A DNA stretch of 32,000 nt from Candidatus Helarchaeota ASGARD archaeon Hel_GB_B (lineage in GTDB: Archaea; Asgardarchaeota; Lokiarchaeia; Helarchaeales; HEL-GB-B). The stretch is from positions 1 to 32,000 of the forward strand of contig SUPR01000015.1 in assembly GCA_005191425.1 (NCBI GenBank), in the 5' to 3' direction. Under the pieces are notes generated by a model. The model was not told the DNA's origin, did not search any database, and saw only the letters and a program-made list of their open reading frames with translations. How positions within the stretch are numbered: position 1 is the first letter of the stretch; every line of letters begins with the position of its first letter. Shown piece by piece: positions 4,181 to 10,865 of this stretch. The position numbers were made by a program, and so were the translations under genes.

Positions 4181-5113
4181 TCAAATTTCATTTTTTAATT
4201 TTTCTAGTTTATTGTTAATTTCAATAACATAACTTAACAAATCATTTAATCGCTGAATAAATTCATCTCTTATATTATATTCTTTATATTCAACAAAATC
4301 CAGAAAATATATTCTAGTTTTAATTATCTCAATTAATTTATCGTTAAACTTTTTAATATCAGGGTATTGCTTTTCAAAAACTTCTTGCCTTTTTTTTCTA
4401 TCCTTTTTTTTAATTTGATTAATATAATCTGACAGGGAATAAAATTGTTTTTTGACTTTTTCATTATTTAATTCAATAAATTTTTCAAGGCGGGCTTTTA
4501 AATTTTGAGCTGGTAGAAATTGAGGTATTTTATCAATTAACGAATTTATTTTTTCTCTTGTACTTCCGATATCTCCTTGAAATTGCCATTTTACTTCATA
4601 GAATTTTGATTCTAAATTAATTTCAGGACCTTCAAGTCGAAAAATTTTAAACCCAAAAGTTTTCTCATTATTAAATTCAAGGCTATTTATATCTAAATCC
4701 AGATTTTTAATGATCAGAAATGGGTCAATAACTAAAGCTATTGCATCAGGATTTTGATTTTGATAGCCTAGTTGAGTTTCATTATCAAAATCAGATAAAA
4801 ATAAATCGATATTGGGGTGTGAATGATACCAACCTACAAAAAACTCTGGTGCAATTTTTTCAGATAACTCAGCTGCTGCTACGTAGTCTTCAGGACCAAA
4901 CCCAACCTTCAGAAATAATTCAGATTCATCTTTTTTTGTATGAGTAAATGGAATTGCATCAGTGACAATAACATTCTCACCTTCAATTTTACCTTGTAGC
5001 AACCCATACACTTCGCCCCAATCCTCTTTTAAAAGACCAAAATTTGCGAATCTAGTGGCACTTATTACAATTTTTATTATTGGTTTCTCAGACAATAAAA
5101 CGTCTTTATTCAT
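4181..5113 (-). CDS. JAMM/MPN+ metallo-isopeptidase (Rpn11/CSN5-like) with C-terminal helical region
   Basis: EVYGLL followed by GWYHSHPNIDLFLSDFD gives an intact E...HxH-x7-S-x2-D motif, then LVIDP. GTGAGGT SD upstream of the ATG. Confidence 0.93.
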   Translation of the reverse strand: MNKDVLLSEKPIIKIVISATRFANFGLLKEDWGEVYGLLQGKIEGENVIVTDAIPFTHTKKDESELFLKVGFGPEDYVAAAELSEKIAPEFFVGWYHSHPNIDLFLSDFDNETQLGYQNQNPDAIALVIDPFLIIKNLDLDINSLEFNNEKTFGFKIFRLEGPEINLESKFYEVKWQFQGDIGSTREKINSLIDKIPQFLPAQNLKARLEKFIELNNEKVKKQFYSLSDYINQIKKKDRKKRQEVFEKQYPDIKKFNDKLIEIIKTRIYFLDFVEYKEYNIRDEFIQRLNDLLSYVIEINNKLEKLKNEI

Positions 5114-5464
5114 ATTACCTCACTAAAAATAAAACATTTAATTTTAATTTAGCAATAAGTATTATTTAAATTCTATTTCAAATTAATGTTAGATATTTTG
5201 CAGATTAGAGTCTTGAATAACGTAAAAAATAGATAAGTTTAAAAAAAATGTTTACATTTTTAATCAATTTATAATGTGAAAATAGTCTAAAAAAAATAGT
5301 TCAATAATCCTTCAGTGAATAAAAAAAAGAAATTTAATAAATTAAAGCGTTTGTATTTAATCCTTGAAAAATAAAAGGCATAAAATTATATCAGTAAATT
5401 ACAAAAAAAACATTATAATTAAAAAAATTAGAGGTTATAAGTTATATATTCTATAAATATAGAA

Positions 5465-5992
5465 TTAAATAATGTGTACTATATTATTAGCTATGTAAGC
5501 ATTAATTTGTTTTTCTTTAATTAACTGCTTGACCCAGTCTAATGCCTCTTCAAAATTTATTTCCAAAATTTCTGCAATATCATTAATCGATATTTCATCT
5601 TTATTTTTTATTATTTTATTAAAATCATTTATGGTGAGATATAGACATTTTTCATGTTCTGGTTTCCAATTTAATTTATTTATTAATTCTCGCGCTCGTT
5701 CATATATTGTTTGGTTCTGTGAACGGGATAACCAGACTAAATCTTGTTTAAATTCGAATAAATATTTGGGATTATTTTTAATTATTTTCAATAAAGCTTG
5801 ATAAGAGCTCCATTGTTTAAAATACAGTTTTTTTTCTTCTTTTTGTTTTTTAGGTATTTCTTTTTTAAAAAAATCAATTAATTTGGAGATTTCTTTAATT
5901 ACCCCTGAAAAATCATGGATTTGATGCAATTTGTTGATTGTATCTGAAATCTTTTTCACATCATTATGCCAAATATCTTCAATCTCTATCAT
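5465..5992 (-). CDS. Helical protein with C-terminal PCI-like winged-helix
   Basis: C-terminus EISINDIAEILEINFEEALDWVKQLIKEKQINAYIANNIVHI follows the PCI/PINT winged-helix pattern (ISL..LA..L.....EVE..L..LI..G.I.A.ID). The N-terminal part looks alpha-helical/HEAT-like. The CDS is likely real; the PCI call is by eye. Confidence 0.6.
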   Translation of the reverse strand: MIEIEDIWHNDVKKISDTINKLHQIHDFSGVIKEISKLIDFFKKEIPKKQKEEKKLYFKQWSSYQALLKIIKNNPKYLFEFKQDLVWLSRSQNQTIYERARELINKLNWKPEHEKCLYLTINDFNKIIKNKDEISINDIAEILEINFEEALDWVKQLIKEKQINAYIANNIVHII

Positions 5993-6121: not shown

Positions 6122-6334
6122 TTACATATTTTTAATCGCTAAAAGGATATCAGCTTTATTTACCTTTTTTCGGCCTGCATGCTTAGCTAATATCATTGCT
6201 CGTTGAGTTATTTCAATGCAAATATCTGTAAAATAAGAAACCAAGTAATCTACAGCTTCCCTAGCTACGATTTTGGCTCCATTTTCAGCCATAAGTGCCC
6301 TTATCGGGGACCATGCGATATATTTTCTAGCCAT
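6122..6334 (-). CDS. Archaeal histone (HMf-like fold, no long tail)
   Basis: IAWSPIRALMAENGAKIVAREAV...AKHAGRKKVNKADILLA matches the histone fold, with AxHAGRK-x-V-x-x-x-D loop 2/helix 3. GAGGT SD upstream. Confidence 0.95.
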   Translation of the reverse strand: MARKYIAWSPIRALMAENGAKIVAREAVDYLVSYFTDICIEITQRAMILAKHAGRKKVNKADILLAIKNM

Positions 6335-10478: not shown

Positions 10479-10865
10479 TTATTGTAAATTCTCTAACAAT
10501 CTGTCTATTAATTCCATACAGTCGTTAATCATTTCTTTATTATAATCGCCTATATTTACTATTGAGATTACAGGTAGATTTGTTTTATGAGAGATTTTTT
10601 CGCCGAATGCTTTAGATATTAATTCATCTTTACCACCGAAAGCTAGTGGAATAGTAGTTGAACTTATTCTACTATCACCAACTTGAAATTTAGATGGTAT
10701 TGAAATAGTTAATAACCCTAATTTAAAACTATTTTTTGAGAGAATGAATATGAGTGCATTTTCCAATTTGGTAATTGCTGCATTTAATGAATAATTTTCT
10801 TTTTTAATAGAATCCGAGGTCCATTTTAATGATTGTAAATTAAAATCTTTCATCTTTAATTTCAC
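10479..10865 (-). CDS. Hypothetical protein, possibly proteasome assembly chaperone 4 (PAC4)-like
   Basis: 128 aa with KLENALIFILS...KLGLLTISIP...SKAFGEKISHKTNLPVISIVN. This resembles from memory the archaeal PAC3/PAC4-like pattern (beta-strands, LG-L-++-P, helix-K-T---V-+S). Not verified by search. Confidence 0.45.
   Translation of the reverse strand: MKLKMKDFNLQSLKWTSDSIKKENYSLNAAITKLENALIFILSKNSFKLGLLTISIPSKFQVGDSRISSTTIPLAFGGKDELISKAFGEKISHKTNLPVISIVNIGDYNKEMINDCMELIDRLLENLQ

Follow-up and report, generated by a model that had tools for sequence, protein, structure and literature searches.

A miniature PCI-fold protein encoded beside a JAMM gene in Helarchaeales, a candidate docking adaptor of the archaeal ubiquitin system

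We describe a gene from the Asgard archaeon Candidatus Helarchaeota Hel_GB_B (assembly GCA_005191425.1, contig SUPR01000015.1, positions 1 to 32,000; this stretch of 32,000 nucleotides is hereinafter referred to as the window) that encodes a protein of 175 amino acids, denoted P0001, and is located next to the gene for an MPN+ protein with a JAMM motif. According to structural modeling, P0001 is a stand-alone, miniature PCI-fold protein that consists of a short HEAT-like repeat and a PCI-type winged helix. The reading that we favor, and that we consider about as likely to be right as wrong, is that P0001 is a lineage-specific, RING-less protein-protein docking adaptor of the eukaryote-like ubiquitin system in this genus of Helarchaeales. 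The PCI-MPN complexes, namely, the lid of the proteasome, the COP9 signalosome (CSN) and eIF3, are regarded as eukaryotic inventions, so that an Asgard PCI-fold gene with an MPN+/MPN- pair next to it is an obvious candidate for a precursor of these assemblies. PCI complexes are not known in archaea (PMC6043591), and the papers searched on structure-based detection of Asgard eukaryotic signature proteins, on the evolution of ubiquitin and on gene duplication make no mention of archaeal PCI proteins and report no archaeal PCI complex.

A predicted PCI fold that ends at an acidic winged helix

The genome that contains the window is 3.5 Mb in size and 94% complete; the window itself, on contig C56, is AT-rich (21-35% GC), and its closest public relatives are labeled in NCBI as Candidatus Helarchaeota or Lokiarchaeota. 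The reading frame that encodes P0001 is a genuine gene under purifying selection. Its orthologues consist of 176-177 amino acids, are 56-65% identical to P0001 and start and end at matching positions; the ratio of nonsynonymous to synonymous substitution rates (dN/dS) is 0.13 in the sole pair with unsaturated dS and 0.07-0.37 in the other defined pairs, synonymous sites being saturated between most lineages of the family. No NCBIfam family is assigned either to P0001 or to P0003, the MPN- protein encoded in the same window.

The top Pfam match of P0001 is PCI (PF01399; 24.3 bits against a cut-off of 22, residues 124-168), with DDRGK ranked second, and the orthologues score 25.1-26.8 bits on the PCI model. 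Because an Lrp/AsnC regulator from the same genome reaches 21.9 bits on this model, the Pfam match alone would be weak; the case for the PCI fold is carried by the fold searches and the charge analysis. The AlphaFold 2 (AF2) model, which was built from seven sequences, has a mean predicted local distance difference test score (pLDDT) of 92.3 and a predicted template modeling score (pTM) of 0.83. In this model, five helices across residues 10-106 (10-24, 28-40, 50-73, 75-89 and 94-106) are followed directly by a winged helix at residues 114-175 with a three-stranded sheet (strands 133-135, 165-168 and 171-174), which is the bipartite architecture of PCI proteins also recovered by the fold searches. 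The last of these strands forms the C-terminus of P0001, the orthologues all end 0-2 residues from it, and no helix following the winged helix was found in P0001 or in any orthologue.

In a Foldseek comparison of the model with the PDB, nearly all of the top 50 matches are PCI subunits of CSN, the lid, eIF3 and TREX-2, with probabilities up to 0.99, a best E-value of only 4e-3 and TM scores of about 0.3. The shape search of the Atlas places the CSN2 cluster first (TM 0.51, 140 residues aligned), followed by the Rpn6, CSN4 and eIF3e clusters, and the independent model of P0001 available in the Atlas retrieves the same families; the PCI subunits that dominate these lists are aligned across residues 8-175. 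Superposition using VIA-align brings the winged helix onto those of CSN2, lid and eIF3 subunits with a root-mean-square deviation (rmsd) of 1.2-1.9 Å over 56-60 residues (15-27% identity, Z 7-8), and when Foldseek pre-selection was omitted, the PCI-like winged helices of UFL1 and DDRGK1 ranked first (Z 7.8, rmsd 1.6 Å, 58 residues). The helical half matches HEAT, adaptin, TOG and designed repeats with Z of 6-7.6. The profile of the P0001 family, when compared to the PDB, detects the winged helix of eIF3e (E 0.005), then DDRGK1 and then a lid subunit; a PDB sequence search with the single P0001 sequence yielded nothing significant. A bacteriohemerythrin match of the same profile (E 0.001, residues 9-66) was rejected, as the would-be metal ligands, such as H9, vary among the orthologues.

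The two halves of the protein carry opposite charges. The winged helix is acidic in 7 of 7 homologues (net charge -3 to -9, pI 4.4-4.8), with an acidic or neutral recognition helix and wing in each of them and zero basic residues in the wing of P0001 itself, INAYIANNIVHII; the helical half, which holds a conserved PKKKKEEKKLYF loop, is basic (net charge +2 to +9). Given this acidity of the winged helix in all homologues, it is not expected to be a DNA-binding helix-turn-helix (HTH) domain, and by its composition it is a poor fit to a DNA-reading head and a good fit to a protein-docking winged helix. None of the DNA-binding HTH families in Pfam matches P0001 or its orthologues with an E-value better than 0.01.

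These observations agree with a first-pass annotation of the window, in which the 175-residue product had been described as helical, with a PCI-type winged helix at its C-terminus and without the bundle helix, and its gene as co-oriented with the MPN+ gene and located 351 nucleotides upstream of it, as the coordinates of the two reading frames confirm (Table 1). A comparison of PCI with HTH families, set beforehand as a check on this description, came out on the side of PCI: no DNA-binding HTH family outscores PCI, the winged helix is acidic, which decides the matter, and the winged helices of PCI subunits, UFL1 and DDRGK1 outrank those of BirA, NiaR and ScpB.

Narrow distribution and RING-containing relatives

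The P0001 family is small. A word-indexed search of 5.8 billion proteins detected five members, and an exhaustive HMMER search of 1.84 billion representatives gave three matches: a close representative of the family, a short fragment and a distant relative, P0009. Full-length members are present in 2 of the 161 genomes of the class, the one that contains the window and the sole other genome of its genus. The P0001 gene is thus a recent genus-level novelty rather than an ancestral partner of the JAMM enzyme, and for this reason it has no bearing on the origin of the lid. A metagenomic protein of 103 amino acids, P0010, contains two copies of a motif that resembles residues 104-143 of P0001 (W-x-PEH-x-KC-x-Y/F) and could represent either a fragment or a repeat-derived pseudogene from this family.

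The only remote relatives of P0001 that share its N-terminal helical half or the specific sequence of its winged helix are RING-bearing proteins. P0009 (262 amino acids) shares both the helical half (32% identity, residues 2-140) and the winged helix, matches PCI with 25.8 bits and has a C-terminal finger with C4HC3 spacing that is recognized as zf-RING_2 (31.9 bits, cut-off 27.3); its gene adjoins a divergent HEAT-RING gene. Within the same order but in another family, the best match is the winged helix-RING end of an 835-residue protein (L040:7265-9772, G005:C3) in which HEAT and TPR repeats are combined with a pair of PCI-type winged helices (52 bits) and, at the C-terminus, a RING (31 bits), and which looks like a large, scaffold-type E3-like ligase. 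This end is homologous to P0009 and aligns with the P0001 family in hhalign with a probability of 99.8%, which is partly driven by the RING row that P0009 contributes to the family profile. By these sequence relationships, P0001 belongs, as the member without a RING, to a family of E3-like proteins in Helarchaeales that have the domain order helical repeat, PCI winged helix and RING. No RING-type Cys/His finger is present in P0001, which ends at residue 175, or in any of the close orthologues; because these proteins stop at the winged helix, they cannot themselves recruit an E2.

The genome itself encodes, at a distance from the window, the components of a eukaryote-like ubiquitin system, including a cluster (G000:C128:58800-65900) of two E2s, a small RING protein, ubiquitin and a 434-residue reading frame that contains a second Ub-like domain, a JAB gene adjoining an E2 gene (G000:C17:80-1900), and about eight eukaryote-type JAB genes altogether. 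One protein of this genome (L019:970-2625, G000:C34; 551 amino acids) combines TPR/SNAP-like repeats, JAB and a winged helix with a sub-threshold PCI match (17.9 bits), and is a covalent version of the arrangement of helical repeat, JAMM and winged helix. In hhalign comparisons, no kinship was detected between the P0001 family and two long JAMM fusion proteins of the same genome (probability below 6%).

On the docking-adaptor reading, the winged helix of P0001 would dock onto a partner protein, as the winged helices of PCI subunits, UFL1 and DDRGK1 do, and the helical repeat would hold a client, for which the adjacent JAMM pair is the most obvious candidate. P0001 would not, then, be a subunit of an assembly of the lid/CSN type, with its PCI horseshoe and helical bundle.

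Several observations weigh against this reading. No partner was found for P0001; the link to ubiquitin comes from two remote relatives, and in one of these the alignment probability is partly driven by the RING row as mentioned above; and P0001 lacks a RING and is encoded outside the ubiquitin gene cluster of the genome. With respect to the fold, whole-chain fits of P0001 to PCI subunits are poor (rmsd ~9 Å, Z ~8), the tight fit being limited to the winged helix, which explains the modest global scores, and the DNA-binding winged helices of BirA, NiaR and ScpB match that of P0001 with Z of 6.1-6.2, only about 1.5 units below the PCI and UFL1 domains. Furthermore, in Lokiarchaeia, PCI-type winged helices are also fused to non-ubiquitin modules, namely, Vps28-C, a prenyltransferase-like toroid and a membrane anchor. 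The module is promiscuous in this class, and the caution voiced in the first-pass annotation, that stand-alone PCI-like winged helices are widespread in Asgard archaea, was well founded; the cases include Vps28-C/UFL1-like arrays, toroid fusions and membrane-anchored forms, and HTH/PCI domains have been described in Asgard ESCRT-associated proteins and kinases (PMC10936438).

The MPN proteins and the gene neighborhood

Table 1. Features of the window in the vicinity of the P0001 gene
Feature	Coordinates	Strand	Basis and remarks
P0001 gene, 175-aa PCI-fold protein	5465..5992	-	Open reading frame and translation from ATG; stop codon 5465-5467
Helical-repeat (HEAT-like) half of P0001, ~aa 8-118	5639..5971	-	AF2 helices, VIA matches, charge
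PCI-type winged helix of P0001, aa 119-175	5468..5638	-	Superposition, family profile, charge
AT-rich spacer, 351 nt, between the PCI-fold and JAMM genes	5114..5464	-	
Putative TATA-like box TTTAAATA	5163..5170	-	Upstream of the JAMM start codon by ~57 nt; a GAGGT ribosome-binding motif comes after it
MPN+ JAMM gene P0002, 310 aa, with C-terminal helical extension	4181..5113	-	Pfam JAB, 47.2 bits
MPN- paralogue P0003, 298 aa	502..1398	+	Pfam JAB, 35 bits; GWFSSRY replaces the JAMM histidines; 2.8 kb from the JAMM gene
Histone gene (Pfam Histone/CBFD_NFYB_HMF)	6122..6334	-	Co-oriented, 129 nt upstream of the P0001 gene

The JAMM motif of P0002 is intact and invariant (E34, H97-S-H99, S107, D110), and the family is represented throughout the class, with full-length matches (residues ~3-308 of 310, E 1e-65 to 1e-109) in more than 120 of the 161 genomes among the matches listed. 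Full-length orthologues of P0003 are found only in its own genus; elsewhere, the P0003 profile just re-finds the JAMM orthologue. P0002 and P0003 are full-length paralogues, and an MPN+/MPN- pair, a putative heterodimer, is encoded alongside P0001; both proteins have long C-terminal helices that carry a common (E/D)(Y/F)xE(Y/F)KE motif. The genes between the two encode DHDPS, a zinc-ribbon protein and an ACT-HAD (SerB-like) phosphatase. Neither P0003 nor the PCI-fold gene occurs beyond this one genus, whereas the JAMM gene is class-wide; the two novelties therefore arose in one lineage and in one block. The duplication into active and dead MPN proteins and the PCI-fold gene are thus both recent additions, made at the level of the genus, to a JAMM gene that is old.

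The P0001 gene is followed by the JAMM gene in six of eight close lineages, with gaps of 351 nucleotides in the window, 105 in L001, 167 in L004, 123 in L035 (identical to G004), 85 in L036 and 142 in L063; in L001 and L063, the gene upstream of P0001 is replaced. The adjacency is lost in L002/L003, where a convergent methyltransferase gene comes after the PCI-fold gene instead of JAMM, and in L062 (a contig of GCA_004524165.1, 8632-10464), where the genes for MPN-, DHDPS, the zinc-ribbon protein, SerB, the PCI-fold protein and the histone follow one another and the 58 nucleotides between SerB and PCI contain no JAMM gene. The adjacency of the histone and PCI-fold genes is likewise kept in six of the eight lineages (the window, L004, L035, L036, L002 and L062, with no upstream histone in L001 and L063), and that of JAMM and SerB wherever the contig extends that far; hence the link between the PCI-fold and JAMM genes is no stronger than the background synteny of this block, which consists of 10 genes without a functional relationship to one another. 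The JAMM orthologues of other genera have genes for a divergent zinc-ribbon protein, TBP or coiled-coil proteins at their sides, and a PCI neighbor was never found. Each genome has a single gene of the P0001 family; the other PF01399 matches in the genome of the window are unrelated multidomain or membrane proteins and one Lrp/AsnC regulator, and none of them lies on a contig with any other JAB match. The position of P0001 beside JAMM is a case of genus-level synteny and does not demonstrate a complex.

Side by side with these comparisons, we noticed that the orthologue of the class-wide JAMM is accompanied, in several genomes of Lokiarchaeia, by a divergently transcribed gene that encodes a protein of 180-240 amino acids (L037:4195-4788, L043:581-1306, L045:619-1305, L046:415-1080, L049:2606-3151 and L051:2565-3182) and matches no Pfam family except for a C-terminal zinc ribbon; this protein may be a conserved partner of the class-wide JAMM. 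Between the P0001 family and the divergent 197-residue neighbor of a distant JAMM orthologue, hhalign detected no kinship (probability below 6%). Elsewhere in the window, a reading frame for 128 amino acids (10479-10865, reverse strand), which is conserved in L002, shows weak, sub-threshold matches to proteasome assembly chaperones (PAC4, 20.6 bits; PAC_bac, 18.4 bits).

The spacer between the PCI-fold and JAMM genes contains two T-runs, T7 at 5421-5427 and T8 at 5403-5410, 38-62 nucleotides past the PCI stop codon. The ~230 nucleotides just after this stop codon (5190-5420) have no counterpart in five related loci, where the spacers comprise 85-167 nucleotides, and only weak, AT-rich look-alikes elsewhere in the same genome (74-75% over ~75 nucleotides); the JAMM-proximal ~100 nucleotides align with the relatives. 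A TTTAAATA/TTTATATA box is present at the same place in the window, in L035 and in L001, and the conservation of this TATA-like element suggests that the JAMM gene has its own promoter and that the two genes are separately promoted. A scan of the spacer for bacterial-type promoters and terminators gave fewer sites than shuffled sequences, the bacterial models being uninformative for this archaeal DNA of 22% GC.

Alternative interpretations and comparison with known systems

From the presence of PCI, MPN+ and MPN- genes together, the first-pass annotation had proposed a reduced PCI-MPN complex. Worked out further, this means that P0001 would bind the MPN+/MPN- heterodimer and scaffold or regulate the deubiquitinase in the manner of PCI subunits with Rpn11-Rpn8 and CSN5-CSN6. 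The PCI-type identity of the protein has held up; the complex gains no positive support from the linkage, the single PCI gene, the missing bundle helix or the seemingly separate promoters. Conservation of the gene neighborhood, which had been named as a check, proved to be limited to a genus-level clade in which the whole 10-gene block is syntenic, with breaks in two of the eight lineages and no PCI neighbor for the class-wide JAMM orthologues. If it existed, such a complex would have evolved independently in this lineage, as an analogue of the eukaryotic ones and not as their ancestor. That the PCI-fold and JAMM genes stay adjacent in the same orientation in six lineages despite saturated synonymous sites, even through the two upstream rearrangements in L001 and L063, is compatible with this idea, as are the fusion of TPR, JAMM and winged helix into one polypeptide in the same genome and the common motif in the C-terminal helices of P0002 and P0003. 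However, this adjacency is no better kept than those of histone with PCI or JAMM with SerB; L062 retains the PCI-fold and MPN- genes at the locus without JAMM, and L002/L003 have the methyltransferase in its place; the MPN- gene lies on the opposite strand, 2.8 kb away; and a TATA-like box of its own precedes the JAMM gene, with T-runs after the PCI stop codon. The helix after the winged helix through which PCI and MPN subunits are joined in the bundle of the lid is absent from P0001, only one PCI-fold gene exists rather than six paralogues, no other PCI match in the genome is near a JAB gene, and the JAMM orthologues outside the genus have no PCI neighbor. Three defining features of complexes of the lid/CSN type are thus absent here: the bundle helix, several paralogous PCI subunits, and a distribution of the PCI protein that matches that of the MPN component (2 of 161 genomes compared with more than 120 of 161 among the matches listed). 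A three-chain complex prediction from the alignments of the MPN+, MPN- and PCI-fold proteins scored 0.00 in each of two runs, below the mark of 0.32, which weighs neither way on binding. We regard this complex as improbable and retain it at all because a single genus and a single block gave rise to both the MPN- duplicate and the PCI-fold gene. More improbable still is a fuller scenario, in which one genus independently built a mini PCI-MPN module by duplicating JAMM into an active/dead pair and recruiting beside it a RING-less scaffold from the PCI-RING ligase family, so that the resulting complex would regulate deubiquitination as a convergent analogue of the lid/CSN core without the helical bundle.

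It is also conceivable, although rather unlikely in our estimation, that P0001 is a PCI-fold adaptor for a process that does not involve ubiquitin, such as membrane trafficking, ESCRT or another lineage-specific complex, and that its RING-containing relatives reflect domain shuffling only. The PCI-type winged helices of the class that are joined to Vps28-C along with UFL1-like tandem winged helices, to a membrane anchor or to a zinc ribbon fit such a role, and so do the HTH/PCI domains in Asgard ESCRT-associated proteins and kinases (PMC10936438), but the remote relatives with which P0001 has the helical half or the specific winged-helix sequence in common all carry a RING, and the block contains no trafficking genes. 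Least probable of all, in our view, is that P0001 is associated with chromatin or nucleic acids, either as a factor that binds histones and is co-expressed with the histone gene upstream of it or as a winged HTH regulator. The co-oriented histone gene, 129 nucleotides upstream in the window and adjacent in six of the eight lineages, an acidic domain that could bind a basic histone, a basic helical half, the Z of 6.1-6.2 for the BirA, NiaR and ScpB winged helices and the 21.9 bits of a genuine Lrp/AsnC HTH on the PCI model all speak in its favor. Against it stand the acidic or neutral recognition helix and wing in every homologue, the higher rank of the PCI, UFL1 and DDRGK1 winged helices, the lack of any DNA-binding HTH family in Pfam under E 0.01, and the loss of the histone adjacency in L001 and L063.

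Compared with the PCI subunits of the lid, CSN and eIF3, of which CSN2, CSN4, Rpn6/PSMD11, PSMD3 and eIF3e are the best matches, P0001 has the same domain order, from a helical repeat to a three-stranded winged helix, but is less than half their size, lacks the bundle helix and has a differently curved helical part (whole-chain rmsd ~9 Å); moreover, it is the product of a single archaeal gene confined to one genus rather than of a paralogue set. Rpn12, CSN8 and eIF3k are short eukaryotic PCI proteins that consist of a short helical part and a winged helix and are integral subunits of 6+2 complexes; they did not appear in the top rows of the fold searches with P0001, and no further comparison with them was made. 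With UFL1 and DDRGK1 (UFBP1) of the eukaryotic UFM1 E3 ligase, P0001 shares the PCI-like winged helix, which in those proteins is a protein-docking unit of a ubiquitin-like ligase, but P0001 has a single winged helix behind a helical repeat, unlike their tandem arrays. Two other proteins, one of 723 amino acids from the genome of the window (L006:619-2790, G000:C160) and one of 797 amino acids (L059:1172-3565, G043:C59), contain PCI winged helices in tandem and match E3_UFM1_ligase (UFL1) and DDRGK as well; the latter protein additionally contains the Vps28 C-terminal domain. The Asgard proteins that combine a helical repeat or winged helix with RING are true sequence relatives of P0001, P0009 through both the helical half and the winged helix and the 835-residue protein through the winged helix, and differ from P0001 and its close orthologues in having the RING.

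With 175 amino acids and no bundle helix, P0001 adds a very compact natural version to the known PCI folds. In Helarchaeales, the module that consists of a helical repeat and a PCI winged helix belongs to a family of RING-containing E3-like proteins, and the P0001 family is in line with the growing picture of winged-helix docking scaffolds in the ubiquitin-type ligases of Asgard archaea.

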